64,000 nt of DNA. It comes from an uncultured virus (IMG/VR IMGVR_UViG_3300030294_000020). Lineage: Duplodnaviria > Heunggongvirae > Uroviricota > Caudoviricetes. The notes under the pieces are model-generated. The model searched no databases and was not told the origin of the DNA. It saw only the letters and a list, made by a program, of their open reading frames with translations. A program made the translations under genes and the position numbers. The stretch is taken from IMG/VR virus record IMGVR_UViG_3300030294_000020; one strand, written 5' to 3'. Positions 30,560-64,000 of the stretch are shown here, piece after piece (the stretch's first letter is position 1; each line of letters opens with the position of its first letter).

Positions 30560-30609
30560 TAATAATCACTCCTTAATTTTAGTTATATATGTAAGACAAA
30601 AGAAAAAGC

Positions 30610-30762
30610 CTAAGCTTCTTCCTCTTTATTCTTTTCAAGTTCCTTTATCATTAAGTCTAACCCTTTTAGCATATCTTTTGTCATTCTCTGCCATGTTTCT
30701 TTATCTGGAGAATTATCCCCATCAAAATCCATACCAGCTAAACTTATTATTTTTCCTGCCAT
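30610..30762 (-). CDS. 50-aa cassette peptide containing LAGMDFDGDN
   Basis: Hand-translated MAGKIISLAGMDFDGDNSPDKETWQRMTKDMLKGLDLMIKELEKNKEEEA; GGAGG RBS; stop inside terminator repeat. Confidence 0.75.
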   Translation of the reverse strand: MAGKIISLAGMDFDGDNSPDKETWQRMTKDMLKGLDLMIKELEKNKEEEA

Positions 30763-30853
30763 AATTAGTCCTCCTTTAATTTCAAAAGTCCTTCTATTAA
30801 AGGGTATGTTTTTCCTGCGTACTTAGAAGTCCTAGGTAAACAAAAGAAAAAGC

Positions 30854-31009
30854 CTAAGCTTCTTCCTCTCTAATAATTTCAGTTATATCTCCATGATAGT
30901 CATAATATTTTTCTTTTTTATTCATAGCAATATGAGCTCCTATATTTGCACCGATAAGTGATCCTATAAAAGTTGATATTACAAATATTAATTTATATTT
31001 ATTTTTCAT
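30854..31009 (-). CDS. 51-aa single-TM cassette protein
   Basis: MKNKYKLIFVISTFIGSLIGANIG..REEEA; stop inside terminator repeat. Confidence 0.7.
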   Translation of the reverse strand: MKNKYKLIFVISTFIGSLIGANIGAHIAMNKKEKYYDYHGDITEIIREEEA

Positions 31010-31277
31010 GATAATAACCTTCTTTCATTATAAGCCATGTTTTTCCTGCGTACTTATAAGTAGTTGAAGTTCTCTCGTTGTTAAACCAGACTCTAGTATC
31101 ATGTCTAATGTAATTTTATCTACTAACTCGCCCATCTTCTCCTTTAATTTTTCACTCGAAATATCACTATTATCAAAAGTTTTCCCCATTAATATCTAGC
31201 CCCTTTCATACTTAGAAGTCCTAATAATACTACCAAAGCAATAATCCCTATAATTAATAAGGATATCCAAAGAATCT

Positions 31278-31661
31278 TCACAAATAATCTTCATTATATT
31301 TTCTCAAGTCTGGGAATATCTCTTTAATACCTTTAAGATGGCTCATCAAATATTCTCTATTAAAAGCATACCAAATAGCTCCGACTGGATATTTAGTTTC
31401 ATATAAGCCATAAGTATAAGGTCTATCTGGATATTCTTCAAGTAATTCTTTAGAGCTACTAATGTAAACCATTTCTTTCTTAGACTCCAACTCAACCAAT
31501 ATCTCTATAACAGAACCTTCATAATAATGAGCAACGGTCTCAAGATTATTAGAGAACCATATTAGTTCTCCACATTCCTTATTAAGTAAATCTTTACCTT
31601 TTTGTACATTTGTTCCTATCATTAGTTTAACTATATGATTTGGTGTTTTTCTTTTTTTCAT
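31278..31661 (-). CDS. Hypothetical protein
   Basis: ORF with RBS. Confidence 0.55.
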   Translation of the reverse strand: MKKRKTPNHIVKLMIGTNVQKGKDLLNKECGELIWFSNNLETVAHYYEGSVIEILVELESKKEMVYISSSKELLEEYPDRPYTYGLYETKYPVGAIWYAFNREYLMSHLKGIKEIFPDLRKYNEDYL

Positions 31662-31686
31662 TAATAAAACCCTCTTTCAAATATGA

Positions 31687-31941
31687 TTAATCAATTTCTT
31701 TAAAACCATAATATTTAATTCGGCTAGGGGATATATCTTCACAACAAATATATTCCCACATATTAATAGTCTTTTCAACCTTTATTCCATCAATATCTAC
31801 TATGAAACAAGTATTTCCATAACAATATTCTGGAGAAGCACCAAGAAATATAAAATCATAAACTTGTGACTTATCTATTTTTAAGCCTTTTTCTAGAATA
31901 ATGTTTTTAAGTGCTTCGTCTGTACAATGATATAATTTCAT
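31687..31941 (-). CDS. Small ADP-ribosyltransferase-fold (Tpt1/PARP-like) protein
   Basis: LYHCT..ILEKGL..IFL..YG..EY...ISPSRI. Confidence 0.45.
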   Translation of the reverse strand: MKLYHCTDEALKNIILEKGLKIDKSQVYDFIFLGASPEYCYGNTCFIVDIDGIKVEKTINMWEYICCEDISPSRIKYYGFKEID

Positions 31942-32373
31942 TTTCTTTTTCCCCTAATTAATTCTCCAATAGACATAATTATTATCAAAACTATTATAAA
32001 TATAACTAATACTTTCATTTTTTCTCCTATTCTCTATAAGAATCATATATTTCAAGTTCAACACCTGCATCTGTAATTTGTAATACTATATCTTCACCAG
32101 TAGACTTACACCAAGCTACTAAGTCTTCTACGGTATTAAAATGCTTAAACTCCTCAAACCTAGATTCACTTGTCTTTGTTATCTTAAATACCATTATTAA
32201 ATCACTCCTTAATATTTATTATAATACAAGCTATTAGCCCAAGTAATATTAAAATTGAAATTAACAAGCATACTATAGATATCTCAAGACTTATATTTCT
32301 TACTATTGTATTATATAACATCATTAATAATGTGGTTGCTATATAAATAACAATAGATTGTTTTGCAGTACTC

Positions 32374-33048
32374 TTATTCATCTTTATGCTCCCTCCATCT
32401 CATTAATTGTAGGGCTTTAGCATTACCCCATACATGATCTGCTAAGTAAAATCCAGTAGTACCATCAAAACTTCTCATTTCAAGATAAAATACTGATTGT
32501 TTTGTTAGTTCTGGGTAGTCATGTTGAAGTTTAACTAGTTCATAAGCCCATTTATTGAATTGTTTATCATCTACAAAGTTGGTATCATATTGATAATATA
32601 AAACACTATGAACTATTACTTGTCTTTGTCTATGATTTATTAACTCTAGAATACCATCCTTATGGTCATCAGCAGTATATATCAAATGAACCAATCCTCC
32701 TTGAATGCCATCAAGAACTACACTTTCCTTATTATACTTGAATAAATATAATTCATTTGGTGTTATGATACTGAATATATTAAATATTATCTCATTAAGC
32801 TCATCTCTCAAAGTATTGTCTTTTTCAAAGTATATTATTGTTCTATTTTCATCTCGTGGTTTAGGAAAATCTATCATATAACTTTCTCCTTCTATCCTAG
32901 TACAATAAGTTCCACCATTTTTTTTAAACTTAATTATATCGTTAGAAGACATAATACTTGATACACCATATTCAATATCATCATCATCTGTAAATAAATT
33001 AGTATTTGGGTCATAGTAAATAGCCATCACATTATTTTCCAAATTCAT
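32374..33048 (-). CDS. Paralog-family protein fused to NAD-ligase domain Ia-like segment
   Basis: Family repeat plus VHSVLYYQYDTNFVDDKQFNKWAYELVKLQHDYPE. Confidence 0.55.
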   Translation of the reverse strand: MNLENNVMAIYYDPNTNLFTDDDDIEYGVSSIMSSNDIIKFKKNGGTYCTRIEGESYMIDFPKPRDENRTIIYFEKDNTLRDELNEIIFNIFSIITPNELYLFKYNKESVVLDGIQGGLVHLIYTADDHKDGILELINHRQRQVIVHSVLYYQYDTNFVDDKQFNKWAYELVKLQHDYPELTKQSVFYLEMRSFDGTTGFYLADHVWGNAKALQLMRWREHKDE

Positions 33049-33427
33049 ACACCATTTTTACAACTCCACCTTTTAAATTATTAACAAATATGGTCTTTTT
33101 ATTCTGCTTAAATAGCAGTAAGTCATTAGGTGTTATAATGCTAAATATATTGAATACTAACTCCCCATACTCATCATCAAACATATTAGTAAACCTATCA
33201 TAATATATAGATCTTTCTAAGTCTCTAATAGGAAATGAGATTGCAAAAGTTTGTATATCATGTTCATCTCTAGATCCATCAGTATAATAAGTACCACCAT
33301 TTTTTTTAAAGAATAATATTTGATCAATGGGCATAATGTCAGATATATCATATTCAATTTGACCCATTTCATCTTCAAAAGTGTTATTATTATCGTTATA
33401 ACATATTAACATTGCTTCATCACCCAT
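33032..33427 (-). CDS. Paralog-family acidic protein
   Basis: YDISDIMPID..GGTYY..FPIRD..FNIFSIITPNDL. Confidence 0.65.
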   Translation of the reverse strand: MGDEAMLICYNDNNNTFEDEMGQIEYDISDIMPIDQILFFKKNGGTYYTDGSRDEHDIQTFAISFPIRDLERSIYYDRFTNMFDDEYGELVFNIFSIITPNDLLLFKQNKKTIFVNNLKGGVVKMVYEFGK

Positions 33428-33810: not shown

Positions 33811-33816
33811 CTCCTT

Positions 33817-38663: not shown

Positions 38664-38693
38664 TTCTATTAAAGAGTATGTTTTTTACGCGTG

Positions 38694-45016: not shown

Positions 45017-45667
45017 AGACAAAATCAGATGCTAAGTTTTCCTTAACATCCGTTTCTAATAATTACTTTAAATCTTCTTTAACCCGATTTATTTGTTGTC
45101 CAATATATTCCGTCGCAGCACTAATCTTCGGTTCCATAAAGTCACAAACCTTGCTTACAATAATATAACTGATAGCAGCTCCACCGATCCAAGTAATGAC
45201 TTTTGTAAGTCCTTTACTATCCTCTGGTGTAGCATCATCTGATACATTTTGTACAACATTGTTCACTCCCATACCAACTATTCCAATTGCTACTGTTTTG
45301 AATATCTCTTTTTTATCCATAATAATCGCTCCCTTCAAAGCAAAATAATTCTTCATTATAGAAGATGTTTTTAACGCGAAATTACAGAAGAGAAAAGAAA
45401 AAGCCTAAGCTTCTTCAGTTGAAGTTTCTTCAATTTGTTCTTCATTATTTAATTCCTCATTATCAACTGATTCATCAATAAGTAGATTCTCTTCGGGTTT
45501 CAGTTTAGTATACACCAATACGCTGGTTGCTATTGCAACTGCTCCTACTAGTACTACTGTACCTGCCTTCTTTAAATTCTTCTTATTAATTATCTCTTTA
45601 ATGTTTTTCATTAATAATCACTCCTCAAATTTTATTTATCTTCATTATAGTGCGTGTTTTCTACGCG
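45017..45667 (-). repeat. Two outlying cassettes (genes 45063-45320 and 45405-45611)
   Basis: Promoters 45352-45378 and 45641-45667; terminator repeat ~45390-45416 and a different hairpin at 45017-45052 ending TTTTGTCTC. Confidence 0.8.
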
Positions 45668-49300: not shown

Positions 49301-49378
49301 GACAAAGTGAAAGAATATGTAAATTCAACATCTACTAATTATATCTCGCTTTGCTGTTCGACATAATTTATTCTTTCA
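49301..49378 (-). ncRNA. Structured non-coding cassette RNA (three-way junction)
   Basis: Promoter 49375-49401; ends pair (TGAAAGAATA/TATTCTTTCA); two internal hairpins; TTTGTCTC tail. Confidence 0.6.
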
Positions 49379-49404
49379 TTATACTGTATGTTTTCTACGC
49401 GAAG

Positions 49405-52009: not shown

Positions 52010-52088
52010 GACAAATAATGAAAGAGTTGTAATATAGATTGACTCTATACTGCACCGTGTCCTTAGACACTACAACTTCTTTCATTAT
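52010..52088 (-). ncRNA. Structured non-coding cassette RNA (three-way junction)
   Basis: Promoter 52081-52107; ~17-bp closing stem; GTGTC-TAAG-GACAC and TATAGA-GTCAA-TCTATA hairpins. Confidence 0.65.
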
Positions 52089-52540
52089 ACAGCGTGTTTT
52101 CTACGCGAGAAAGAAAAAGCCTAAGCTTCCTTAATAACCTCTTCTTTGGCGTAATAAACACCATTGATAAAATCTTTCTTGACGTTTGATTCTCATAATT
52201 TTCATTTTTTCTTGTACCTTTATTTCTACCATTATTGATATTGCTACCAATATAGATATTCCAAATAGTACAATTTCTAAATTTCTAATCATAATAATTC
52301 CTCCTCAAAATATAATTTCTTTCATTATAGAGTAAGTTTTATACGCGAATCAATCACCTGTGTAGTTCCACAAATGTCCGTAGAAGTCCCTAGCAGACTC
52401 ATACATTTCTTTTGTCACTATTTTGTCCTTAAAACTACAACTCCATAAACTGCATTTACTACCATAACAAGATTCTATTGGATATATGTGAGATAGTTCA
52501 ATAGTACTCCTTTCAAGAAAAATTTAATAGAGAGAAAAAA

Positions 52541-52613
52541 GAAATGTGTATGATCTGAACATACGTACTAAGTATTTCTACCCTTGCTCTCCCCAATCTG
52601 AGCTAATCATTTC
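52541..52613 (-). ncRNA. tRNA-like RNA lacking an anticodon loop
   Basis: D arm TAGCTCAGATTGGGGAGAGCA, T arm GTATG-TTCAGAT-CATAC, acceptor GAAATG/CATTTC, GGGTA-GAAA-TACTT in place of anticodon arm; own promoter 52615-52641. Confidence 0.7.
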
Positions 52614-52649
52614 TTTCATTATACAGTGTGTAATACACGCGAGAGACAA

Positions 52650-52790
52650 AAGGAAAGCGTTAAGCCTTCTTATTAGTTTTAGATATAGATAACTATTCTA
52701 ACCCCCAATTTTAATAGTGACTTAATCTATCTTTACTTTTTTCTTCTCACTATTATATTATTTAGTTTCGTCTTTTAAACTCCTTCTAAA
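52650..52790 (-). pseudogene. Decayed cassette
   Basis: RBS GGAG followed by ACG instead of ATG and an early TAA; degenerate terminator. Confidence 0.4.
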
Positions 52791-52847
52791 ATATAATTTA
52801 TTCTTTCATTATAAGATAAGTTATTCACGCGAGATAAAAAGAAAGCA

Positions 52848-53006
52848 CTAAGCTTCCTTATCAATTGTAGATTTGTTTTTTAATGCATTAGCATCTAATA
52901 CTAACATATTAACCATAACTAAACCTACTATCAATATAGCAGTTAATTTCTTTCTTCTTTGTTTTTGTTCATATTTTCTTACAACTTCGTTAAATGTTGT
53001 TTTCAT
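52848..53006 (-). CDS. 52-aa single-TM cassette protein
   Basis: Hand-translated MKTTFNEVV..IDKEA; stop in terminator. Confidence 0.7.
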   Translation of the reverse strand: MKTTFNEVVRKYEQKQRRKKLTAILIVGLVMVNMLVLDANALKNKSTIDKEA

Positions 53007-53078
53007 TTTAACTCCACCTTTCAAAATATAATTCTTTCATTATAGAGTATGTTATTTTTACGAGACAAAGAAAGAAGC

Positions 53079-53279
53079 CTAAGCTTCCTCCTCTTTTGAA
53101 TTTTCTTCTTCAGGTTTCTTTTTCATTAATTTCTTGTGAACTCCAATCGCAAGTTTCTTTCCTCCAGACATTATTTTATTTCCAGTAGCAACTATGCCTA
53201 TAAGCATTAATGTTGTTGCCAGAATTGTATATTTAATATCTGTTGGTTCTTCTTTTACTATTGTTTCGTTCTCTTCCAT
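53079..53279 (-). CDS. Small TM cassette protein
   Basis: Ends KEEEA in terminator repeat; start reset to RBS-preceded ATG. Confidence 0.7.
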   Translation of the reverse strand: MEENETIVKEEPTDIKYTILATTLMLIGIVATGNKIMSGGKKLAIGVHKKLMKKKPEEENSKEEEA

Positions 53280-53350
53280 AATAAACATCTCCTAAATTTT
53301 TATTCTTTCATTATAGTGCATGTTTTTTACGCGAGAAAGAAAAACGAAGT

Positions 53351-53542
53351 TTATTTAACTTCATCATCTTCTTCAATTACTTCAATTTTGTTATTTATTG
53401 CATATTTTAATATCTCTAAATTTTCATATATTTGTTCTATTTCTAATAGTTCCTGTTTACGTGCCTTTCTATAAATTACTTCATTGCACCCTAATTTAAC
53501 AACTATTAAAACTTCAATTCCTATAATTATATTCATCGTCAT
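53351..53542 (-). CDS. Small cassette protein
   Basis: Between promoter 53577 and degenerate terminator. Confidence 0.6.
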   Translation of the reverse strand: MTMNIIIGIEVLIVVKLGCNEVIYRKARKQELLEIEQIYENLEILKYAINNKIEVIEEDDEVK

Positions 53543-54072
53543 TTTAATATTAATAATAACATCCCCTTAAAGTTATTTCATTAAAGAGTATGTTTTTTAT
53601 ACGATAGACAAAGAAAAAGCCTAAGCTTTATCTCTTTTTCAAAGTATCAAATATTGTACAAGTCTTCTTATCAAATTTATGTGTACCTTCATTCTTTATT
53701 CTTAGTTCCATAATATCAAATTTCCTCAATATGATAATTGTAATAAGTAACATTCCTATCAATAACATTAACATTAATAATCTCCTCCTTCAATTTTAAC
53801 CTTCATTATAGACAGTGTTTTCTACGCGAAATATAGAAAGAAAAAGCCTAAGCTAATTCTTTTAAGAAATATCATAATTTATTAACCCACTTATTCATTT
53901 GTTTATTTCTTCTTGATAATGATATTTCACCATCTACTGCTAATAGCAGAAATAGTATAAATGTCAATCCAAATATAATAAATATTAAATTCATAATTAA
54001 TAATCCCTTCTTTCTTCATTAAAGGCAGTGTTTTTAATGCGTACTAAGAATTTTATAAGACAAAGAAAAAGC

Positions 54073-54276
54073 CTAAGCTTTCTCTATTGAAATTCTACCA
54101 AGTTCTATTGTTAAAACAGTTATTTCTCTTTCAATATTAACCTTTTCCATCTCCTGATCATTTAACTGTGTGCAATACATATCAATCATTTTTTTAATTT
54201 CCTTTATTTTATCGCACGTAGTCTTAAGTTCTATCGAGTTAAGTTTTAATTCTATAAATATTTTTGTTTCGTCCAT
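54073..54276 (-). CDS. Coiled-coil cassette protein
   Basis: Ends IEKA in terminator repeat. Confidence 0.7.
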   Translation of the reverse strand: MDETKIFIELKLNSIELKTTCDKIKEIKKMIDMYCTQLNDQEMEKVNIEREITVLTIELGRISIEKA

Positions 54277-54357
54277 AATAATCACTCCTCTAAATTTCTT
54301 TCATTATAGGGAATGTTTTTTACGCGTACTAAGAATTTTATAAGACAAAGAAAAAGC

Positions 54358-54534
54358 CTAAGCTTTAACTCTTGATTTAATTTTATTTCTATGTCGTTTA
54401 ATATGTTCAATCCCATTAGCGATCTTATAATAACATTTCTCTGTAGTCTTAACAACTGCCCCAACTAATATTGGCGTAACTGCTAAAGCCACTAATCCTG
54501 TTAATGTATTATCTTTAATTTCTTTTCTATCCAT
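54358..54534 (-). CDS. 58-aa TM cassette protein
   Basis: Hand-translated MDRKEIKDNTLTGLVALAV..RVKA. Confidence 0.7.
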   Translation of the reverse strand: MDRKEIKDNTLTGLVALAVTPILVGAVVKTTEKCYYKIANGIEHIKRHRNKIKSRVKA

Positions 54535-54606
54535 AATAAATTCCTCCTAAAAATATATTTATTTCATTATAGGGAGTGTTTTTTACGCGAGAGACAAAGA
54601 GAAAGC

Positions 54607-54870
54607 CTAAGCCTTCTTCCTTTTTAAATAATTTTTGAATCTCTGTAAATCATCCTTGTCTAATAGATTAAATACTACTACAGCCCAACTTCCATCTTTA
54701 TTTTTGGTACATATACTCCCATATTCTTTACTACAAAACATCAAACCTATCTTACATTCCTTCTCTATGAATTTATCGCTAAGCCCTTTGTTTACTCGTG
54801 TTGAATGGTCATATCTTATCATCTCTTCTGTGTATCGTGCATTGTAATCTTTTTTAATCCTATATAACAT
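54607..54870 (-). CDS. Cassette protein, paralog of 55203-55460
   Basis: Shared KDY..TxExIR..EKECKIGLxF..EY. Confidence 0.75.
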   Translation of the reverse strand: MLYRIKKDYNARYTEEMIRYDHSTRVNKGLSDKFIEKECKIGLMFCSKEYGSICTKNKDGSWAVVVFNLLDKDDLQRFKNYLKRKKA

Positions 54871-55202
54871 AATAATTCCCTCTTTCAAATTTATTTCATT
54901 ATATAGAGTGTTTTACACGCGTAGCACCATTTTGAATTATTAGTGACAAAAGAAAAAGCCTAAGCTTTAACTTATCCAAATATTATTTTTAGCTAAGTAT
55001 TTACGTAATTTAAACATTTCTAATTGTGCTTTTCTAATCCTATGATTCCTTATAATTCTCCCAATTATAAAACTTACTATCATAGATAACACTATCAATA
55101 ACATTATCATTAATAATCACTCCTTCAAAATTCTTCTATTATATAGAGTGTTTTTTACGCGTACTAAGAATCTTAGAAGTCCTTAAGAGTCAAAGAAAAA
55201 GC

Positions 55203-55460
55203 CTAAGCTTCTTCCTTTAAAATCTTTTCTAAACTCTCCATATCATTCTTATCATCAATTTCGAATATCAGTTTATCTCTACTGGTGTCTTCATTTTTAA
55301 TAATCAATACAACATACTCATCATTCGCGAACTCTAAACCAATCTTACATTCTTTCTCGTAATATTTGTTTTCTTTTCGTTCGTTTAAACGATTATATTG
55401 TTCTCTTATATCTTCATCTGTCCAACCAATATCATAATCTTTAATTCCTCTTTTAACCAT
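55203..55460 (-). CDS. Cassette protein, paralog of 54607-54870
   Basis: As above; ends KEEA. Confidence 0.75.
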   Translation of the reverse strand: MVKRGIKDYDIGWTDEDIREQYNRLNERKENKYYEKECKIGLEFANDEYVVLIIKNEDTSRDKLIFEIDDKNDMESLEKILKEEA

Positions 55461-55534
55461 AATAACTCCTTCTTTCAAGTTTTTTATTTCATTATAGGAG
55501 ATGTTTCATACGCGATAAAGACAAAAGGAAAAGC

Positions 55535-55708
55535 CTAAGCTTTCCACTTTCCATTTAAAATAAGTGCTAATTTATTATTTGAAATAGCTAACTTTCGAAC
55601 TGCTTTTCGTCCACCAATGGCATATACAAATATACTTACCATACACCTAAGTATACAATAAGTCCTATCTGCAATTTCCTTCACTGCATTTACAACAATT
55701 TTGTTCAT
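55535..55708 (-). CDS. Small cassette protein
   Basis: GGAGG RBS before MNKIVV; ends WKA in terminator. Confidence 0.65.
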   Translation of the reverse strand: MNKIVVNAVKEIADRTYCILRCMVSIFVYAIGGRKAVRKLAISNNKLALILNGKWKA

Positions 55709-55765
55709 ATTTATTCCTCCTAAATTAAATTTATTTCTATTATAGTATAAGTTTCTTATGCGAAA

Positions 55766-55975
55766 GACAAAAATTAAAAGCTGTGTTTTGGTGACGACCC
55801 ATCGAAAATCGTCCATTAAGCTAATATCTATAGCCACCTGTAGGTAAGGGAAATGCCCCTACGCCTTCGTGTCTTACATAACACATTCTTTTAATTAAGG
55901 TATCTCATTATACCACTCCTTTTACAGAGGGAGATAGTGCTCTCGCCTATCCGATTAAATTGCTTCTTACCTTCA
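55766..55975 (-). ncRNA. ~210-nt highly structured non-coding cassette RNA
   Basis: Promoter 55972-55998; GC-richer than surroundings; at least seven hairpins; TTTTTGTC tail. Confidence 0.65.
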
Positions 55976-56027
55976 TTATATGATATGTATTCTACGCGTA
56001 AGACAAAGAGAAAGCCTAAGCTTTAAC

Positions 56028-56282
56028 TTACTCAAATGACTCGACTATTTGCCAAGTATCATCCGGTTGTTGTTGTAACTTAATATTTGCTCCCGCTTTA
56101 AATTCCAAATCTGGAAATCTATTCTTAAACTCTTCTTCACTAATTTCCATTGAACAAGTTTCATCTTCTAGCTTTTTACCATAGTGAACCAATGCCGCTG
56201 TTGCAACAACTGCTCCTCCTATAGCTACTGCTAAATAACTTAAACCCTTCTTCAAATTCTTTTTATTAAATATCTTTTTCAT
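56028..56282 (-). CDS. Single-TM cassette protein
   Basis: Basic N-terminus plus hydrophobic helix; GGAGG RBS. Confidence 0.7.
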   Translation of the reverse strand: MKKIFNKKNLKKGLSYLAVAIGGAVVATAALVHYGKKLEDETCSMEISEEEFKNRFPDLEFKAGANIKLQQQPDDTWQIVESFE

Positions 56283-56380
56283 AATAAAACCTCCTAATAA
56301 TTTTTCTTTCATTATAGTGGATGTTATTTACGCGTACTACCATTTTGAATTATTAGAGAGAAAAAAGAAAAGACTTAGAT

Positions 56381-56614
56381 CTATGCGATCTTTATCTTTA
56401 CTTCTGTTCCTAATTTAATAGCTAGATTTACGTCATGTAATAAAGCTTCTCTTCTATAACTTCTGCACTCAAATGTTATTCTAATACTTTTGTCTTTTTT
56501 ACTTTCTATTGATACATAATCCATTGGATATATACCTTCGAAAATACTACAAACCTTAAAATAATCCTTTTCAGTTACATCGATTATAACAAATCTTCTT
56601 AATAATTTTTTCAT
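56381..56614 (-). CDS. Cassette protein
   Basis: GGAG RBS before MKKLL. Confidence 0.65.
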   Translation of the reverse strand: MKKLLRRFVIIDVTEKDYFKVCSIFEGIYPMDYVSIESKKDKSIRITFECRSYRREALLHDVNLAIKLGTEVKIKIA

Positions 56615-56870
56615 AATATCACTCCTATTTTTAATTAGTTCTTTCATTATAGAGAGTGTTTCATACGCGATAAAGACAAAAGGAAAAGCCTATGCTTTCA
56701 TCCTTTCAAAAATCTTATTTCTTAATTAAAAATGCTACTAATAATACCACTAACCATAACCCTCCTGTAATGAATGTCATGAATACGTGAAATAATAATT
56801 TCATACTAATCTCCTCCTTTAAATTTCTTCTATTATAATGCATGTTTTTTACGCGAGACAAAAAGAAAGC

Positions 56871-57011
56871 CTAAGCTTCCTTCTTTTTTTGAATACTCTC
56901 ATTATATCCTTTCTTGAAACCTCCTACAAAACCTTTCCAATAACTATATACATAACTTGTAAGTGGTACCCCCACTACAACAATTGCAAACTTTGTTAAT
57001 TTTTTGTTCAT
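56871..57011 (-). CDS. 46-aa TM cassette protein
   Basis: Hand-translated MNKKLTKFAIVVVG..KKKEA. Confidence 0.65.
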   Translation of the reverse strand: MNKKLTKFAIVVVGVPLTSYVYSYWKGFVGGFKKGYNESIQKKKEA

Positions 57012-57110
57012 AATAATCTCTCCTCTTTTTTAATGATTTCTTTCATTATAAGGTATGTTTTATACGCGTACTTAGAACCTTAGAAGTCTTGATAAGACAA
57101 AAGAAAAAGC

Positions 57111-57278
57111 CTAAGCTTCTTCCTCTCCTTTGTTTGAAATCTCTTCAACTTTTGTGGATTCTACTTTCTTCATCCAATTCTGTAACCATACCTGGCTTCC
57201 AACCATACTTCCGATTATACCTCCAACCATGCTTATAGCATATCCGCCAACTAATATAATTACTGTTTGTTTCCTCAT
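57111..57278 (-). CDS. 55-aa TM cassette protein
   Basis: Hand-translated MRKQTVIILVGG..GEEEA. Confidence 0.7.
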   Translation of the reverse strand: MRKQTVIILVGGYAISMVGGIIGSMVGSQVWLQNWMKKVESTKVEEISNKGEEEA

Positions 57279-57350
57279 AGTAACATCCTCCTAAATTTCT
57301 TTATTTCATTATAGAGCATGTTCTATATGCGAGGAGACAAAAGAAAAAGC

Positions 57351-57584
57351 CTAAGCTTCTTCCTCTTTAATAATCTTCTTTCGATAGTTTTTTACTTTAT
57401 ACTCAAAGCATTCTATATTTGTATTTGTGCTTGCATATTGTTCCATTAGTAATGCAATTAAGGCTTTAGAATCCTTGTCCAAAACTTCTTGTTTTTGAAT
57501 AATTTCTATTTCCTTCATTGTAAAATCTAAATGGGCATTTAATAAGTCCAAATTTTCTTCATATATTTTCATTAAGTTTTTCAT
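57351..57584 (-). CDS. Coiled-coil cassette protein
   Basis: Ends IIKEEEA. Confidence 0.7.
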   Translation of the reverse strand: MKNLMKIYEENLDLLNAHLDFTMKEIEIIQKQEVLDKDSKALIALLMEQYASTNTNIECFEYKVKNYRKKIIKEEEA

Positions 57585-57655
57585 AATAAAACCCTCTTCC
57601 AAATTTATTTCTATTATAGAGTATGTTTTATACGCGTAAGAGACAAAGAAAAAGC

Positions 57656-57979
57656 CTAAGCTTCTTCAGATTTTTCTGTAATAAGACCATCACTTAACGA
57701 TATACAAGAATATTCGTCTGTATTGACTCCTTCCTTAAATATTGCATATGACTCCGAATTATTTGCATTCAAATCTATTATCTCTTTAACTCTTTCTAAA
57801 TTCATAAATTTATCTTCAGGTGTCCAACTGATTACATCTTTTCCTGCATAGGGATTAACAACCTCTTCTTTATCCGTTTTAGTATATATAACTGCACCTA
57901 TAATGGCAACACCTACAATACATCCAACGGATATAAGTTTGTTTTTATTCTCTTTGCAAAATGTTTTAATATCTTTCAT
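57656..57979 (-). CDS. Single-TM cassette protein (related to 46029-46361)
   Basis: MKDIKTFCKENKNKLISVGCIVG; ends SEEA. Confidence 0.7.
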   Translation of the reverse strand: MKDIKTFCKENKNKLISVGCIVGVAIIGAVIYTKTDKEEVVNPYAGKDVISWTPEDKFMNLERVKEIIDLNANNSESYAIFKEGVNTDEYSCISLSDGLITEKSEEA

Positions 57980-58066
57980 ATCAACATCTCCTAATAATTT
58001 ATTTCTATTATAGAGTATGTTTCTAACGCGACTACCATTTTGAATCTTTTAAGACAAAGAAAAAGC

Positions 58067-58327
58067 CTAAGCTTCTTCTTTAAATTTCTTTATGTTATCA
58101 TTTAGTCGGTCTATCCATTTGTCTATTTGGATAAGTTCCTTATTAATATCATGATAATCAATATTTAACAAATCTATATAATCCATCCAAATCAGTTTAT
58201 AATAATCTTCATTTATACTATGCTCATTTAGCTCTTTTATAATCCATTTTTGTCGTTCTTGTCTATCAATCTTATACTGTTTAAGATAACTTAATTCCTC
58301 ATAATCCTTTTCTATCCATTCATCCAT
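58067..58327 (-). CDS. Coiled-coil cassette protein
   Basis: Ends KEEA. Confidence 0.7.
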   Translation of the reverse strand: MDEWIEKDYEELSYLKQYKIDRQERQKWIIKELNEHSINEDYYKLIWMDYIDLLNIDYHDINKELIQIDKWIDRLNDNIKKFKEEA

Positions 58328-58389
58328 AATAACCCTTCTTTCATTAAAGGATATGTTTTTAACGCGTACTTAGAAGACAAAGAAAAAGC

Positions 58390-58593
58390 CTAAGCTTTCT
58401 CATTAGATTTATCCTTAAGTATCATATAACTTTTCATTCCTATTGTCAATATAGCCCAATTAAGTGCAAGCAATGCAAGTACTGGTATTAAAAATCTATT
58501 ACTCTTTTCCTCAAGTGATGATCCTTTATACGCTTCTACTCCTATGTATATGCCCATAACTATGTATATTGCTAAAATTAGTGAATTTGTCAT
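58390..58593 (-). CDS. Two-TM cassette protein
   Basis: Two hydrophobic helices; ends NEKA. Confidence 0.7.
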   Translation of the reverse strand: MTNSLILAIYIVMGIYIGVEAYKGSSLEEKSNRFLIPVLALLALNWAILTIGMKSYMILKDKSNEKA

Positions 58594-58633
58594 TTATAAC
58601 ATCTCCTTAAAATTTCTTCTATTATAGGATGTG

Positions 58634-59386
58634 TTATTCCTGCGTACTTAGAAGTTTTGATTTAATCTTTTCATATTCTTTATTTGCTAATTCTTCTCTT
58701 CTTTTATTTTCTGAAATTCTTTCTTGCAAGGTGCTTATTACTACCTGGGCTTGCCACATTGTTGATTCTAAACTCTCTTCTCTTAACTCTTTACTCTTAC
58801 TAAATCTATGTCGTGCTTCTGCCATCATAGCACTAAGACTATTGCATACTTTATTTATCTTGTCATCAGTAAGTTCTACAGTTTCAATTGAATATTCTTT
58901 TTTCTTATCTAAAGTTACTTGCATAAGTTTAATGGAACCTTCTGTTGCTCCTTTGTTCTTAGAAGTCTCTACAACCTCTCTAGGAATAACATTATTAAAA
59001 CCATCATAGTAAGTAACTTCTTCACCCTCGTCCTTAGAAGTCTTAGAAGTCTCCTCAACCTTAAAAATATGATCATTCAAGTCAGGACGTCTTTGCATCA
59101 TTGTTATAGCTGCAGCTGCATTCCACATTACTGCTGCTAAATGATCTTCGTCTGTCCAACCATTACCAGCCTTAAGAGAATGACGTATCATACGATTAAT
59201 ACAGTCCTTTACGCTCATCCCTTTTTCCCAGTTACGTTCAGGATATTTATTAGTAGCATCCTCGTACCATTTAGCTAATGCTTCGATTGCTTCATATGGT
59301 AATAAGTCAAATCTACCTCGTCCTTCATTTGATTCTCTATTAACACCAGTTTCTGTTGTCTCCATAACACCTTGTCCCTTTATCAT
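58634..59386 (-). CDS. dATP/dGTP diphosphohydrolase-like (DUF5664) protein with coiled-coil tail
   Basis: GRFDLLP..KYPERNWEKG..IRH..EDHLAAVMWNA. Confidence 0.7.
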   Translation of the reverse strand: MIKGQGVMETTETGVNRESNEGRGRFDLLPYEAIEALAKWYEDATNKYPERNWEKGMSVKDCINRMIRHSLKAGNGWTDEDHLAAVMWNAAAAITMMQRRPDLNDHIFKVEETSKTSKDEGEEVTYYDGFNNVIPREVVETSKNKGATEGSIKLMQVTLDKKKEYSIETVELTDDKINKVCNSLSAMMAEARHRFSKSKELREESLESTMWQAQVVISTLQERISENKRREELANKEYEKIKSKLLSTQE

Positions 59387-59883
59387 TATAATACCTCCTT
59401 CATAAATATTTGTGCTTGTTCTTTTAAATTATTTAAATCTCCATCGTTATTAATAGTATAGTCGTACTTATAATTCTCAACATTTGCATCAGCCATATTG
59501 GACATAATTTTAGGTTTGTTTATATTTTTTATAAGTAAAGTAGAACACTCAAAAGCCCTTTTAACCTTATCAATCTCAAGTGGTTCTCGAATATGTATAA
59601 ACATTACTCGTAATGGTGCTTGGCCTTTCCTAAATTCAATTATAGACTCTTTAATATATTCGTACGGATTATTATTATAACCTGTAGATAATATCTTTAA
59701 GTTAGATAAAAATAGTCTATCTTCTTCCTCTTTTGTCCATCTCCATCCCAATATATTAGCAGCTTCTTTTATTTTATCAACGGATGATACATTAGTAACA
59801 GATACAAACTCACGACAAAAATCTATAAAACAATCTTTTCCAACACTTCCTGAACCGTTTATTATGATTACATTAGATACCAT
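59386..59883 (-). CDS. P-loop nucleotide (dNMP) kinase-like protein
   Basis: IINGSGSVGKD..HIRE..YDYTINNDG. Confidence 0.65.
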   Translation of the reverse strand: MVSNVIIINGSGSVGKDCFIDFCREFVSVTNVSSVDKIKEAANILGWRWTKEEEDRLFLSNLKILSTGYNNNPYEYIKESIIEFRKGQAPLRVMFIHIREPLEIDKVKRAFECSTLLIKNINKPKIMSNMADANVENYKYDYTINNDGDLNNLKEQAQIFMKEVL

Positions 59884-60051
59884 TAATATCGCCCCCCTAA
59901 TTTTATATTATCCTAATATTGTTAATACTATCAAGCAAATTGGCATTACTATGAATACTGATATAAAAACTCTCCACATAAACCGTAAGCCCTTATATGC
60001 ATCTGTCTCACTCCACTTTTGAATGTCCTCCTCAAACATTAGTTCACCATC

Positions 60052-60342
60052 CTATTTATTTAATACTACCATGTCTAATATCTTAATTTTATATTTTTTT
60101 AATACATTCATTATTCTACCTCGTGTATACATCTGGCCGTTGTGTATCTCTTCGTTAACTATGCCTATCTTAAGCGAACATTCATTACAAATACTCATGC
60201 TTAAACCATTACATTCACCTGCTCCACCTTTTTGACATGGAACATCTATCCTTATGCTAATTCTTGTTGCACCATCATACTCATCTTCTGTCATTTCAGT
60301 ATTACAATAATCGCATGTACATTTTGTTACTGTATCTTTCAT
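60052..60342 (-). CDS. Zinc-binding hypothetical protein
   Basis: CDYC..CNEC; start reset to RBS-preceded ATG. Confidence 0.6.
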   Translation of the reverse strand: MKDTVTKCTCDYCNTEMTEDEYDGATRISIRIDVPCQKGGAGECNGLSMSICNECSLKIGIVNEEIHNGQMYTRGRIMNVLKKYKIKILDMVVLNK

Positions 60343-60402
60343 ACTAATCCTCCTACCATTTTGAATTATTTTAGACAAAAGAAAAAGCCTAAGCTTCTTC
60401 CG

Positions 60403-60645
60403 TTATTTCATCTTATCCGGATTTGTTTCTGCGTACTCATTATAACGTTCTCTTAAATTAAGATCTTCAAATTCTCCATCAAACCAATTTATTGTTTCGT
60501 GAAATCCAATTCTACCTCCTGCTATAAAAGCTTGTTTTTGTATAGCTCTTATTACAAAGTATGATATGACTAAACCTCCACTAATAATAATTGTTTTGTG
60601 TTTCTTTATAAATCCATTTACTTTTCCTGTTACTTTATTTTCCAT
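60403..60645 (-). CDS. Single-TM cassette protein
   Basis: Cassette-flanked; GGAG RBS. Confidence 0.7.
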   Translation of the reverse strand: MENKVTGKVNGFIKKHKTIIISGGLVISYFVIRAIQKQAFIAGGRIGFHETINWFDGEFEDLNLRERYNEYAETNPDKMK

Positions 60646-60708
60646 AATAACATCTCCTTCTTTCATTATAGAGTGTGTTTTATATGTGAATAAGACAAAA
60701 GAAAAAGC

Positions 60709-60912
60709 CTAAGCTTCTTCCGTTGAAGTTTCAATTTTTGATTCATTATCTATCAAATTGTCGTCATGTATATTTATATGTAAATGGTGATGACTCATTG
60801 AATAATCAATACCCATATATGCTCCAGCAAATGCTGTTGCTCCTATAAGTACTACTACACCAATTGTCTTCACTGGTTTACTTTGTATAAACTTCTTTAA
60901 TTTCTCTTTCAT
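60709..60912 (-). CDS. Single-TM cassette protein with His-rich patch (paralog of 45405-45611)
   Basis: SHHHLHINIH; both end ETSTEEA. Confidence 0.7.
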   Translation of the reverse strand: MKEKLKKFIQSKPVKTIGVVVLIGATAFAGAYMGIDYSMSHHHLHINIHDDNLIDNESKIETSTEEA

Positions 60913-61162
60913 TAATAATTCCTCCTAAAATTTATTCTTCTATTATAGAGTATGTTCTTAACGCGACAAAAGAAAAAGCCTAAGCTTAATCTTTCTTAGA
61001 AGTATCTTCTATAAATCTTTTAAAATTTCTAGTTTCTAATGGATCTGGAATATAACTTTTTGTTAAACCCTTATCCTTTTTAGTATTCACTTTAATATTT
61101 TTCTTATTCATTTTAATACCTTCTTTCATTATACAGTATGTTTTTTACGCGAAAGAAAAAGC

Positions 61163-61333
61163 CTAAGCTTCATCTTTTATAAATTGTATTAATTCAAGTT
61201 TTATTGATGCATGGTGTAAATGCTTTTGTGCTTCTTCAAATTGTCTATTTAATAATGATTCTTTAAACTTCGTTGTCTCAACGATTGACTCATCAATTAA
61301 TTTTTCAATTTCTAGCATAGTATTTTTATCCAT
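61163..61333 (-). CDS. Helical cassette protein
   Basis: Ends KDEA. Confidence 0.65.
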   Translation of the reverse strand: MDKNTMLEIEKLIDESIVETTKFKESLLNRQFEEAQKHLHHASIKLELIQFIKDEA

Positions 61334-61403
61334 ACTAACATCCTCCTTGACATAATATTCTTTCATTATAGAAGATGTTCTTAGTACGAGACAAAAGGAA
61401 AGC

Positions 61404-61604
61404 CTAAGCTTCCTCTTTTAATTGATTCTTTAAGTCTTTATTTTCTGACTTTAATCTGTCATTATCTTTAATCACTATACCGACCATGTTGTCCCAAATT
61501 CTTTGTTGTCTATTATTGAAATTTTCTTTCGCTAATAAACCCATCATCATTCCGAATAACATTAATCCAGTACCAGTTATTACAACTTTAACATCATCAT
61601 TCAT
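61404..61604 (-). CDS. Single-TM cassette protein
   Basis: Ends KEEA. Confidence 0.7.
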   Translation of the reverse strand: MNDDVKVVITGTGLMLFGMMMGLLAKENFNNRQQRIWDNMVGIVIKDNDRLKSENKDLKNQLKEEA

Positions 61605-61684
61605 TGTTAATACCTCCTTAAATTATCTTTCACTATAGGGGATGTTATATACGCGTAACAGAGACAAAAGGAAAGCCTAAGCTT

Positions 61685-61906
61685 TCAATCTTTACTATAG
61701 TTCTTATTTGGTATATAAGATCTATCTTTCAAGACTTCTACTCTATCTTTCCTATTCTTATCCATTCCAACGAAGACATCTGTTACAACTTTATTAGCAA
61801 TACCTGTTAACGCTCCATCTGTAATGTAAACAACACCTCTTATAACTTTTGGTGCTACTTTCACTACTACATAGATTGTTAATATGTTTTTTAATAATTT
61901 ATTCAT
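61685..61906 (-). CDS. Cassette protein
   Basis: Cassette-flanked; GGAGG RBS. Confidence 0.65.
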   Translation of the reverse strand: MNKLLKNILTIYVVVKVAPKVIRGVVYITDGALTGIANKVVTDVFVGMDKNRKDRVEVLKDRSYIPNKNYSKD

Positions 61907-62446
61907 ACTAATCTCCTCCTTTAAATTTCTTCTATTATAAGGGATGTTTTATACGCGTATGACAAAGAAAAAGCCTAAGCTTCTTCCTACAATTGATTAA
62001 TTTAACTTATTGCATACTCCACTAATGATCTAACATAATTATCGGTACTAATATTTCCAAGTTCATGCAATTTGTTCAAACATGCTATTGCATTATTTGT
62101 CTCTTCTTCTGTAATTGGATTTTCTTTTTTACCGTTAATCCATATTTCATAGTGTTCATTGTCATTCATTATAATTAACCCTCTTTCATTATAGGAGGTG
62201 TTTTTAGTGCGTACTTAGAATCTTAGAAGACAAAGAAAAAGCCTAAGCTAATTCCTCTGATTGTGATGCCTTTATCAAATAATCTTGTTCTTCGTTAAAG
62301 CATGATAATGAACAATGATTCAGTTCTGTATTTTCTGATTCAAATTCTTTACCACACCAAGTACAAATATTTTTATATTTCATAATAATCTCCTTCTTTC
62401 ATTATAGGGAGTGTTTTAAATACGAGACAAAGAAAAAGCCTAAGCT

Positions 62447-62692
62447 TTAACTTTTTAAGTCTTCAATTGTTAATTTAAATCCTGAATCATTAAGTATTTT
62501 ACATAATAATTGTGTATAGTTTTCTTTAGTAACCTCTCCTATTGCATATAGTTCTTTTAAACATTCTACTGAATTTGCATTTCTTGCAATTACATTAGCA
62601 TTATTTAAATGTCTATCTATCTCAATAAGTGACCTTGCTCCTTTAATCCATAACTCATCATGTAAACCATTAGTTAATTTTTCATCGTACAT
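62447..62692 (-). CDS. Cassette protein
   Basis: Cassette-flanked; GGAG RBS. Confidence 0.7.
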   Translation of the reverse strand: MYDEKLTNGLHDELWIKGARSLIEIDRHLNNANVIARNANSVECLKELYAIGEVTKENYTQLLCKILNDSGFKLTIEDLKS

Positions 62693-62757
62693 AATAATCT
62701 CCTTCTTTCATTATAGGAGATGTTTTCTACGCGATTAAGACAAAGAAAAAGCCTAAG

Positions 62758-62898
62758 CTAATTCCATAAAGTTCCATTTATTTTTTGCATCATTAATTCT
62801 GATTGTTGTTCCTTTGTAAGTTTATTCCATAATCTATCACGATTTCTTGCGTGTAGTATTTTTCTATAACTTTTCATTGTATTTATCAATTTTCTCAT
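62758..62898 (-). CDS. Small cassette protein
   Basis: GGAG RBS before MRKLINT. Confidence 0.6.
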   Translation of the reverse strand: MRKLINTMKSYRKILHARNRDRLWNKLTKEQQSELMMQKINGTLWN

Positions 62899-62998
62899 AA
62901 TAATCACTCCTAATAATTTTATTTCATTAAAGAGTGTGTTTTCTACGCGTACTACCATTTTGAATCGTTTAGGACAAAAAGAAAGCCTAAGCTCTCTT

Positions 62999-63256
62999 CT
63001 ATAGTAATGTTCTAAATCCTTCGTAATTCATCTCTTCAAATTTATGCTTTTCTTTAAAGTAATCAAACCTCTCACCCGTTCCTTTACAACATAAGACATA
63101 TATCGGTTGTATCTTAAATCCATCTGAACTTTTGATTATATCTGACTCTCTCAAATCATATATCTCAAAGCCTTCTTTCTTAAGTAAATCTTTAATACTT
63201 ACTGCTGCTTCTTCTGTATGGTTAGTTATAACCCTAAATTTCATTTTTTCAAACAT
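62999..63256 (-). CDS. Cassette protein
   Basis: Cassette-flanked; GGAG RBS. Confidence 0.7.
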   Translation of the reverse strand: MFEKMKFRVITNHTEEAAVSIKDLLKKEGFEIYDLRESDIIKSSDGFKIQPIYVLCCKGTGERFDYFKEKHKFEEMNYEGFRTLL

Positions 63257-63343
63257 ATTAATTCCTCCTATAATAAAACATTATTTTCATTATAGTATGT
63301 GTTTTTAATGCGTACTTAGAATTTTATAAGACAAAGAAAAAGC

Positions 63344-63601
63344 CTAAGCTTCTTCCTCTTTAATAATTTCAGATTTCTTATTGTTCTTTAAAAATGCCTT
63401 TGCAGACGTTTCTAACTCTAGTTTTCCACTACGAGCAATCTCGACAATGATATCAATTTCATTTTCATCTAAGTCTAATGATTTTAACCATTCGTTAAAT
63501 TCACTATACCCAAACCTCCAATTAATTTTACCATTCATTCTTACCCAACTCATAATATATCTAGATGCATGTGTACCTCTAATAATTACATTTTCAAACA
63601 T
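63344..63601 (-). CDS. Cassette protein (IRGTHASRYIMSW..GKLELE)
   Basis: Ends IIKEEEA; GGAGG RBS. Confidence 0.75.
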   Translation of the reverse strand: MFENVIIRGTHASRYIMSWVRMNGKINWRFGYSEFNEWLKSLDLDENEIDIIVEIARSGKLELETSAKAFLKNNKKSEIIKEEEA

Positions 63602-63682
63602 AATAATACCTCCTAATTTTTTATTTCATTATAAGGTATGTTTTATACGCGTACTTAGAAGCTTATAAGACAAAGAAAAAGC

Positions 63683-64000
63683 CTAAGCCCTTTCTATAAT
63701 TGTAAATCCTTCATCTAAGGCATCTTGTTTTGAATAACCGTCTGCTAAAGCATCTGAATAGATAGCACAATACGTATCATCCGCAAATACTGGTAATCCA
63801 TTGTTGTACATTAAATTCTCGTTATTACATTTTTGCTTCCACTCCTTAGCCCATTCTGGTAGAACTTCAATGTTTGTTACATCATGAATTTCTACTTTTT
63901 CTGGCTTTAAAATGCTAGCAATAATTATACCTCCGACAATCAAACCACCTGCAATAATTTCCAATCTACGTTTTACGTAAAATTCTTTTATTTTCTGCTT
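63683..64000 (-). CDS. Single-TM cassette protein, 5' end beyond window
   Basis: Frame open to the window edge; ends ERA in terminator repeat. Confidence 0.65.
   Translation of the reverse strand, partial: KQKIKEFYVKRRLEIIAGGLIVGGIIIASILKPEKVEIHDVTNIEVLPEWAKEWKQKCNNENLMYNNGLPVFADDTYCAIYSDALADGYSKQDALDEGFTIIERA

Follow-up and report, generated by a model that had tools for sequence, protein, structure and literature searches.

In the T4-type phages, an element of about 100 bp that combines a strong early promoter with a stem-loop (PeSL) flanks ORFan genes, and crossovers between related genomes fall inside the element (PMC2839356, PMC4122927). PeSL mini-circles were demonstrated by inverse polymerase chain reaction, and the authors cite less than 50 bp as sufficient for T4 recombination (PMC2839356). 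In the Thermus phage P23-45, pre-early motifs are read by virion and non-virion two-barrel RNA polymerases (PMC10770324). A further point of reference is a supercluster of Actinobacteria and Firmicutes phages, made up of the actinobacteriophage clusters AM, AU, AW, DJ, CC, EL and BI together with the Lactococcus 1706-type and Faecalibacterium phages, whose hosts span two phyla and whose signature is a putative RNA polymerase with helix-turn-helix (HTH) modules at both ends (10.1101/842583). Here we consider a stretch of 64,000 nt from the uncultured Caudoviricetes virus IMGVR_UViG_3300030294_000020 (the window, to which coordinates refer unless a contig is named), one end of which is occupied by an array of small promoter-gene-terminator units. 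We think it rather probable that this is an early-end array of about 50 self-contained units, headed by promoters for a phage polymerase and shuffled by PeSL-like recombination at the unit boundaries.

The original prediction had pointed to a repeated minus-strand grammar of promoter, gene and terminator, nearly continuous from 52 kb, and counting bears this out, with 44 motif copies, 36 of them in the array. At no more than three mismatches, CGCGTAAAAAACA-N5-TATAAT has 39 sites in the window, 39/39 on the minus strand, where 0.04 are expected from 100 shuffles; with four mismatches allowed, there are 44 sites on the minus strand and one on the plus strand. The 36 copies of CGCGTAnAAAACA-N5-TATAAT that form the near-continuous array lie between 52,084 and 63,651, and the outliers are at 15.1, 30.8, 31.0, 38.7, 45.4, 45.7, 49.4 and 50.8 kb, so that all the outliers listed in the prediction were found. 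The window's ORFs (open reading frames) of any size are all on the minus strand. The array, and one example each of its promoter and its terminator, are as follows.

52084..64000, minus strand: near-continuous array of 36 motif-headed units, running off the window edge, with 13 further promoters in metagenome contig L134
53310..53333, minus strand: perfect promoter motif, CGCGTAAAAAACATGCACTATAAT, with zero mismatches, followed by GAAAGAA, a ribosome-binding site (RBS) and the ORF 53279-53079
57336..57366, minus strand: conserved hairpin of the predicted terminator, GAGGAAGAAGC-UUAG-GCUUUUUCUUUU followed by GUCU, found by string and core matches and by folding, with the cargo stop codon TAG in the loop

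The array had been described as reaching the window edge, and it does, but it does not end there. L134 matches window 57,011-64,000 at 100% identity and reaches 5 kb further; the array extends in it 3.6 kb beyond the edge, for a total of 49-50 units. In the window joined to this extension (69,019 nt) there are 57 promoter motifs, 49 within the contiguous array, and a degenerate fiftieth array promoter lies at ~61,388-61,365. Beyond its 13 extra units, L134 encodes the C-terminus of an endolysin, with a peptidoglycan-binding look, and two holin-like ORFs. These lysis genes lie directly upstream of the first unit, and the array therefore begins right after them. Successive array promoters are 167-504 nt apart, with the single exception of a 2,044-nt unit, and the median unit length in the extended array is 278 nt. 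An RBS-led ORF of 25-110 aa (median 67) is present in 43 of the 49 units, six units having no ORF, and in the window array the RBS-led ORF begins 11-34 nt after the motif. The terminator core is found in 40 of the 49 units, and in most window units it lies 15-49 nt ahead of the next promoter. About 45 autonomous cassettes had been predicted for the window. We count about 38, that is, 36 in the array, about two at 30.6-31.0 kb and one or two at 45.4-45.7 kb; what follows the four motifs at 15.1, 38.7, 49.4 and 50.8 kb is a leader or a longer unit, not a small cassette.

The predicted terminators are likewise far in excess of expectation. A 24-nt terminator string has 13 window matches at no more than three mismatches, against 0 expected, and its core, AAGCTTAGGCTTT, has 35 minus-strand matches at no more than two mismatches; the 11 plus-strand matches of the core are the same near-palindromic sites. 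Terminator-like sites number 16, against 2.3 expected. The hairpins are 22-28 nt in size, their stems contain two to three G-C pairs, and the U-run makes up the 3' arm; six examples have predicted free energies of -12 to -14.3 kcal/mol and folding z scores of -0.96 to -3.0. The stop codon is the TAG of the terminator loop in 22 of the 43 cargo ORFs, in which case the 5' arm of the hairpin is translated, and 12 cargo proteins end in EEA. The exact 23-nt terminator string occurs at no locus in viral contigs and at loci in metagenome contigs. Other lineages carry a lineage-specific hairpin and T-run upstream of CGCG, an GCTTAGGC centre recurring in several of them.

Terminator and promoter together make up the boundary between two units, and it is the boundary that is conserved. 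In 39 boundaries, which measure 58-89 nt, mean pairwise identity is 75% for promoter and terminator sequence, against 32% for cargo at the same offset, and the longest exact run common to two boundaries has a median of 18 nt and a maximum of 43 nt. Only four related pairs were found among 39 cargo proteins (E<0.01), and 35 of the 39 are without similarity to each other, which upholds the earlier statement that the cargo is mostly unrelated and the boundaries conserved. The boundaries are of several types: terminator and promoter adjoin directly in 26, a (c)ttctaag(a)ttct(a/t)agta module lies between them in 12, a attcaaaatggtagta module in five, and six belong to none of these three types. Example boundaries are at 63313-63338 and 62950-62980. 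The modules may be extra regulator sites or may mark promoter sub-classes.

What becomes of the units among relatives? Contig L140 is from a related phage, with a lysis region 75-77% identical to that of the window phage, and has 22 motif-headed units, here called K units, the array units of the window phage being W units. Ten of the 22 have a homologue among the 49.

Homologous units of L140 and the window phage: K3-W4, K7-W19, K9-W9, K10-W10, K11-W13, K12-W12, K14-W14, K15-W21, K17-W23 and K19-diphosphohydrolase unit

The two orders are collinear except that W12 and W13 are swapped, W19 has moved, and the block W15-W20 is missing, with W5-W8 replaced by other units. At the K14/K15 junction, the L140 sequence is W14-like up to the terminator and W21-like from the -10 box onward, so that the switch lies between terminator and -10 box. 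Two fragments have further arrangements, the order W23-like, W10-like, W30-like in L131, and a W31-like unit adjoining a W38-like one in L129. A second lineage provides an independent case. Five of its contigs, otherwise collinear, vary in whether they carry units E, K and L, which are single units of 199-289 nt, and a 488-nt insertion, with flanks that are ~97% identical, spans exactly the distance from one promoter to the following one. Relatives gain, lose, swap and move cassettes, with crossovers in the terminator-promoter boundaries. The original prediction had named this outcome, cassettes gained, lost and reordered at breakpoints within the repeats, as its test. Joints were also looked for at the read level, by comparing contigs of four DNA runs with 44-64 kb, which gave many 'skips' and one joint that 'goes back 1005'. 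The sides of these joints are 20-39 nt, at boundary repeats, so that the joints are not separable from assembly-graph ambiguity or co-occurring relatives, and they are not used as evidence.

The cargo common to the window phage and its relative has a ratio of nonsynonymous to synonymous substitution rates (dN/dS) of 0.38-0.66, which marks the genes of the units as real and their constraint as relaxed; dS values of 0.31-1.31 across units fit mosaic, uneven histories. Two variant contigs of the window phage have internal deletions, of 35 nt (L138, compared with 58,390-58,593) and of 41 nt (L136, compared with 52,848-53,006), each truncating a cargo ORF, as fits dispensable genes.

We propose that the region would be the early end of the phage genome, directly after the lysis genes, and would consist of some 50 self-contained transcription units. 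Each would be made up of a clade-private promoter of 24-28 nt, an RBS, one small fast-evolving gene (often for a single-pass membrane protein) or a small RNA, and a hairpin terminator. With boundaries about 75% identical, homologous recombination between them, probably with the phage's annealing protein and exonuclease as the machinery, would delete, insert, swap and move whole units and leave the expression of their neighbours intact. The mechanism would be that of the PeSL of T4-type phages, in another lineage. We infer four parts of this account, namely the polymerase that reads the promoter, the early timing, the enzymes of recombination and the function of the cargo. The genes that it calls upon are these.

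10562..13504, minus strand: predicted single-chain two-barrel RNA polymerase of 980 aa with N- and C-terminal HTH modules (phrog_4291, E 0; 45% identity to gp91 of Gordonia phage Rickmore)
13509..14063, minus strand: exonuclease (phrog_3953, E 7.5e-74)
17264..17779, minus strand: single-strand annealing protein (phrog_4787, E 1.4e-62)

Besides the annealing protein and exonuclease, the window encodes a large terminase (TerL), portal, protease-capsid fusion, primase-polymerase, helicase, ThyX and two DUF6353 proteins. TerL is 77% identical to the TerL of Gordonia and Streptomyces phages, and the primase-polymerase is 53-55% identical to its Arthrobacter and Gordonia phage counterparts; by these protein similarities, the window is from a siphovirus-like phage of the supercluster introduced above. 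A phage RNA polymerase, which the prediction had named as the reader of the array, is encoded in the window, by the 980-aa ORF. Its catalytic loop, ADFDGD (A513-D518), is invariant in 39 aligned sequences and conforms to DxDGD. A structure model of the protein has a mean predicted local distance difference test score of 77.6, and the best Foldseek matches to the model are QDE-1 (E 1.7e-7), P74 gp62 (1.9e-6), the P23-45-type gp64 (8e-6) and RDR2, with gp96 (E 2e-3) lower down, followed by the large subunits of cellular RNA polymerases; the global template modelling score is only ~0.25, as expected for a multi-domain model. A phmmer search against PDB sequences gave no meaningful match. The modelled fold places the protein among the two-barrel single-chain RNA polymerases (YonO/QDE-1-like).

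The promoter motif and this polymerase travel together. An exact-pattern scan of 2.9 million viral contigs found 46 motif loci, 41 of which have supercluster hallmark genes within 10 kb. In five whole records there are 12, 8, 10, 11 and 3 motif copies, on a single strand in each record, and the reversed-pattern control gave 0; four of the five records encode the polymerase, the exception being a fragment rated 25% complete. Gordonia phage records also carry the motif, as do contigs with GC contents of 30-56%, its copies being confined to a single strand. This distribution marks the motif as a hallmark of the clade, tied to the clade rather than to the host.

Which polymerase, then, reads the motif? 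Sigma-70-type sites are not enriched, either in the array (69, against 67.5 expected) or near the polymerase gene (37, against 32.9 expected). A TTGACA-like -35 hexamer at 16-18 bp upstream is not a feature of the promoters: among the 60 sites listed, five of the 36 array promoters gain a 4-of-6 hexamer, and those hexamers (TTGTCT and similar) are supplied by the terminator tail. TATAAT is followed by G or A in 400 of the 401 different contexts of the motif. Shine-Dalgarno (SD) cores start no more than 6 nt after TATAAT in 85 of the 332 contexts that have an SD core and a start codon, and no more than 3 nt after it in 53, and hairpins and the closing helices of predicted RNAs start 0-2 nt after TATAAT. 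For sigma-70-type promoters, the RNA starts 6-8 nt downstream of the -10 hexamer. The purine after TATAAT, the close SD cores and the immediate hairpins argue for an RNA start directly after TATAAT, and this geometry, with the lack of a -35 box, makes the motif most likely the phage polymerase's own promoter. On this evidence we consider it probable that the HTH-flanked two-barrel polymerase reads the motif and starts the RNA at that purine.

An immediate hairpin is seen at one of the outlying motifs, which stands at the boundary of replication and late genes.

15056..15123, minus strand: motif followed by a hairpin and a T-run, upstream of the genes for an SLT-domain protein, the exonuclease and the RNA polymerase and of the packaging genes

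Similar hairpins occur at L082, L083, L098, L099 and ~20 further loci, with stem sequences that vary by lineage. The layout, a hairpin starting 0-2 nt after TATAAT and then a T-run, is found in 24 of 29 lineages, compared with 9 of 363 other promoter contexts, the 29 late-promoter hairpins having been chosen by eye. The element at 15056..15123 looks like a promoter-proximal terminator, which, ahead of late genes, would call for antitermination. The pR'-tR' region of lambda is an analogous promoter-proximal terminator with antitermination.

Among the cargo, an HTH protein of 72 aa is encoded at L134:7793-8011 (minus strand), ~0.8-1.0 kb past the window edge, and has a homologue in unit 9 of L140. 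It matches positions 48-114 of the phrog_4291 profile (E 7e-11), scores 26.7 bits with Pfam Sigma70_r4_2, where the cut-off is 25.7, and is 39% identical to residues 40-108 of the window polymerase, that is, to the N-terminal HTH module. The protein, a free-standing copy of that module, may act as a regulator or as a competitor at the same promoters.

The chief alternative to reading by the phage polymerase is a host sigma-A promoter aided by a phage factor, in which TATAAT is a true -10 box and CGCGTA an activator or sigma-remodelling site. The hexamer is indeed perfect, and the CGCGTA-to-TATAAT spacer is 12 nt. T4 middle promoters consist of a -10 box and a MotA box ~12 bp upstream, and require MotA and AsiA. 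The sigma-region-4-like HTH cargo at L134:7793-8011 could be such a factor, and with a host polymerase the problem of how the first genes are expressed disappears. The paper on Gordonia phage Vardy also reads the motif as a sigma-70 -10 box (PMC9671010). This proposal must contend with the constancy of the 24-nt motif across 30-56% GC, a range over which host promoter rules differ, and with the close SD cores and the hairpins at 0-2 nt, which a start 6-8 nt downstream would cut off; further, no MotA or AsiA family was found among 80 Pfam-scanned proteins, a set that does not include every ORF. We regard a host sigma-A promoter as possible but distinctly the less likely of the two. Certain points nonetheless weigh against reading by the phage polymerase, and against our account as a whole. 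What we say of promoter, start site, terminator function and timing is drawn from the sequence. As a -10 box for sigma-A, TATAAT is perfect, and the cluster DJ genome paper takes the same motif for a sigma-70 promoter (PMC9671010). The terminator is weak by bacterial rules, given its two to three G-C pairs and a U-run that serves as the 3' arm. To read the first genes, the polymerase would have to be injected with the DNA or made beforehand from another promoter, and its gene is far downstream of the array, behind the promoter-proximal hairpin. The 24 of 29 given above is biased upward by hand-picking and is not an unbiased rate, and RNAalifold, run on a MAFFT alignment of the 29 hairpins, returned no consensus structure, since stems of different length do not align in register; per-sequence folds were used instead. 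Finally, the boundary breakpoints could reflect the survival of viable recombinants rather than preferred crossover sites, and the relatives compared are a single related contig, a few short fragments and one further lineage rather than complete genomes.

How the array came to be and how it changes might also be explained in other ways. One is tandem duplication of a single cassette followed by divergence of the cargo, with the boundaries kept by selection for strong signals and with relatives that differ by plain deletions. The four paralogous cargo pairs are in keeping with such an origin, as are the N5 spacers and hairpins, which are homogeneous within a genome and differ between lineages, and the 35-nt and 41-nt deletions in the cargo ORFs of L138 and L136. 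We nevertheless think duplication improbable, as 35 of the 39 cargo proteins are mutually dissimilar, the relatives show replacement, swap and transposition and not loss alone, and dS has a four-fold spread between units of one genome pair. The original prediction had called the array integron-like. In a true integron-like platform, the hairpins would be attC-like sites for a site-specific recombinase, which would excise or insert cassettes as circles. Like integron cassettes, the genes of the array are small, for the most part unrelated, and set between structured repeats that are conserved, and a likeness to integrons was noted by the PeSL authors too, who observed mini-circles in T4-type phages (PMC2839356). 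In the mechanistic sense the name is not supported. The prediction had seen no integrase, and we too, in the 24 largest ORFs and the 52 cargo proteins of the window and L134, found no match to an integrase or recombinase family; an integron would have a tyrosine recombinase of the IntI type beside the array. There is no attC architecture, and the hairpin is only 22-28 nt. Integron cassettes lack promoters, lie between attC sites and share a single promoter, whereas all 49 units here are headed by a promoter motif of their own and have their own terminators. The crossovers that were mapped have no single fixed point, falling either within the promoter or between the terminator and the -10 box, and other lineages pair the same promoter with different hairpin sequences. 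An integron-like mechanism therefore seems to us very improbable.

The closest known system is PeSL-mediated modular shuffling, not the integron. The prediction's analogy with the early modules of T4-like phages was thus close, and the precise match is the PeSL system of the T4-type phages (PMC2839356, PMC4122927). In both cases, a composite of terminator and promoter, of roughly 60-100 bp, is present in many copies per genome (here 39 boundaries of 58-89 nt) and flanks small ORFan genes in a hyperplastic early region; between close relatives, genes are inserted, deleted or replaced, and the crossovers fall within the element. Neither is known to have a dedicated recombinase, and in both the phage's own recombination system is suspected. 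The differences concern lineage, promoter and packing. PeSL belong to T4-type myoviruses, whereas the present lineage is the siphovirus-like supercluster. PeSL promoters are strong early promoters of the sigma-70 type, which the host polymerase reads; the promoter here lacks a -35 box, is conserved among phages whose hosts belong to two phyla, and probably has a phage polymerase as its reader. Here, too, about 50 units are packed in one run, and the stop codon usually lies in the terminator loop.

P23-45 offers a parallel for the transcription signals (PMC10770324). There, a phage two-barrel polymerase has a conserved private promoter motif at many early starts, a conserved terminator motif is present at seven termination sites, and the motif co-occurs with the enzyme among relatives. 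The polymerase family differs from ours, as the fold matches to gp64 and gp62 (E ~1e-5 to 1e-6) and to gp96 (2e-3) indicate, and so does the motif sequence. P23-45 has start-site and chromatin immunoprecipitation experiments, whereas the present clade is known from sequence, and no cassette shuffling is described for P23-45 (PMC10770324). Within the supercluster itself, Vardy (cluster DJ) has a 50-bp intergenic motif with a TATAAT core before small genes, many of them with membrane segments (PMC9671010), and Gordonia DJ records carry the motif of the window phage. In Vardy, the one case in which the motif has appeared in print, there are five copies, read as a sigma-70 promoter; PMC9671010 neither links them to a phage polymerase nor compares them across the clade, and it describes no array or shuffling. 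The supercluster's signature polymerase (10.1101/842583) is the same protein as ours, with HTH modules at both ends, the DxDGD loop and the same gene neighbourhood; in the main text of that report, the words 'promoter' and 'terminator' have 0 occurrences.

Our literature search found no experiment on DNA-dependent, promoter-specific transcription by the phrog_4291 family, and no mapping of promoters of HTH-flanked two-barrel phage polymerases. The ~50 near-identical sites, with a clear consensus, could serve directly as templates for transcription in vitro and for the mapping of start sites. The shuffling described here would extend a PeSL-type process, reported until now for T4-type phages, to phages of an unrelated group that is very widespread and spans two phyla, and it suggests how such phages maintain a large, fast-turning pool of small early genes. 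A bolder scheme, which we put forward tentatively and think rather unlikely as a whole, is that promoter and terminator are the signals of a polymerase that the phage brings along, perhaps packed in the head, that the boundaries serve as a host-independent currency of exchange, and that the free HTH cassette tunes the array or shuts it off. If that were so, a cassette would be expression-ready in any member of the supercluster, whatever the phylum of its host, and Actinobacteria and Firmicutes phages could trade small early genes by short-homology recombination.

The cargo is largely without known relatives. Pfam matches above the cut-off were obtained for two of 52 cargo proteins, the Sigma70_r4_2 match of the HTH protein discussed above and the N-domain of a dATP/dGTP diphosphohydrolase. 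PHROGs matches were obtained for 11 of the 52, most to families without function, and PADLOC matched none of the 52. The part in host takeover or anti-defence that the prediction gave to the cargo is a guess. A membrane helix is predicted in 19 of the 43 cargo ORFs. With 43 small proteins, 19 with a membrane helix and almost all without known relatives, the cargo makes up a compact library for host-takeover or counter-defence screens in laboratory strains. The diphosphohydrolase belongs to the one long unit of the array.

58634..60378, minus strand: polycistronic insert within the array (the 2,044-nt unit), with ORFs of 108 aa, 43 aa, 165 aa (dNMP-kinase-like) and 250 aa (dATP/dGTP diphosphohydrolase-like, PF18909, E 1.9e-18), and with a match to phrog_139

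There is a hint of altered nucleotide metabolism in its dATP/dGTP diphosphohydrolase-like (PF18909) and dNMP-kinase-like genes (58634-59883), taken with ThyX (15253-15888) and with the methyltransferase-like ORF at 24902-25405.

The outlying motifs other than that at the late boundary are arranged as follows.

30595..31050, minus strand: two outlying cassettes, with promoters at 31050-31027 and 30819-30796, terminators at 30861 and 30617, and ORFs of 51 aa and 50 aa, both ending in EEEA
38668..38691, minus strand: motif followed by a degenerate terminator core and then a 101-aa ORF, 38577-38272 (from motif and core matches)
45355..45667, minus strand: two outlying promoters and one cassette, its terminator at 45412
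49378..49401, minus strand: motif with a leader hairpin (folding z -2.4), then the DUF6353 gene 48465-49256; no small cassette
50751..50774, minus strand: motif without an RBS-led ORF directly behind it (from the motif search and ORF layout)

Among the units without an ORF, some are predicted to encode structured RNAs. The first unit of the array is an ORF-less RNA of 86 nt that is kept in both phages (L134 ~10,492-10,577, minus strand; L140 7013-7098). The same fold is predicted for the two versions, with compensatory differences in the inner helix, and the 5' end takes part in the closing helix. Within the window are the following ORF-less units.

52348..52807, minus strand: two units, with promoters at 52831 and 52641 and folding z of -1.2 and 0.0, which give no support for structure
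55763..55974, minus strand: predicted structured RNA of 212 nt (minimum free energy -55.2, z -2.1), its closing helix using the bases directly after TATAAT

About 100 nt of the 212-nt predicted RNA is kept in the related fragment L130, with one hairpin altered on both sides. The L130 version has, in addition, two T-arm-like GGTTCAATTCC hairpins. Rfam gave 0 matches at the gathering score for the whole window and 0 at E<=1 for 49.0-56.1 kb, and no tRNA genes were found in the window.

A megablast search of 52-64 kb against 50,697 phage records gave no match. The two DUF6353 genes are paralogues, and homologues of them are found near the motif in most related loci.

36620-37537 and 48465-49256, minus strand: DUF6353 paralogues (E 1e-73 and 2e-77)

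Several proteins of the window have Leu-x-His sites. A regular-expression search for the GRYPxGSG-type N-terminal tag of the polymerase found a single occurrence in the window; the likenesses in the 135-aa and 271-aa ORFs are only of the looser, Leu-x-His kind. The sites are ELYH-IG at the N-terminus of the polymerase (10562-13504), TLAH-TG at the start of the 135-aa ORF (8371-8778) and FLQH-YV in the 271-aa ORF (3809-4624). The spacer of the protease-capsid fusion (1972-3798, minus strand) contains EIEHS twice, as well as VVHS and LSHS, and the Leu-x-His sites of the polymerase and the two ORFs resemble these capsid-precursor spacer sites, a likeness of sequence only.

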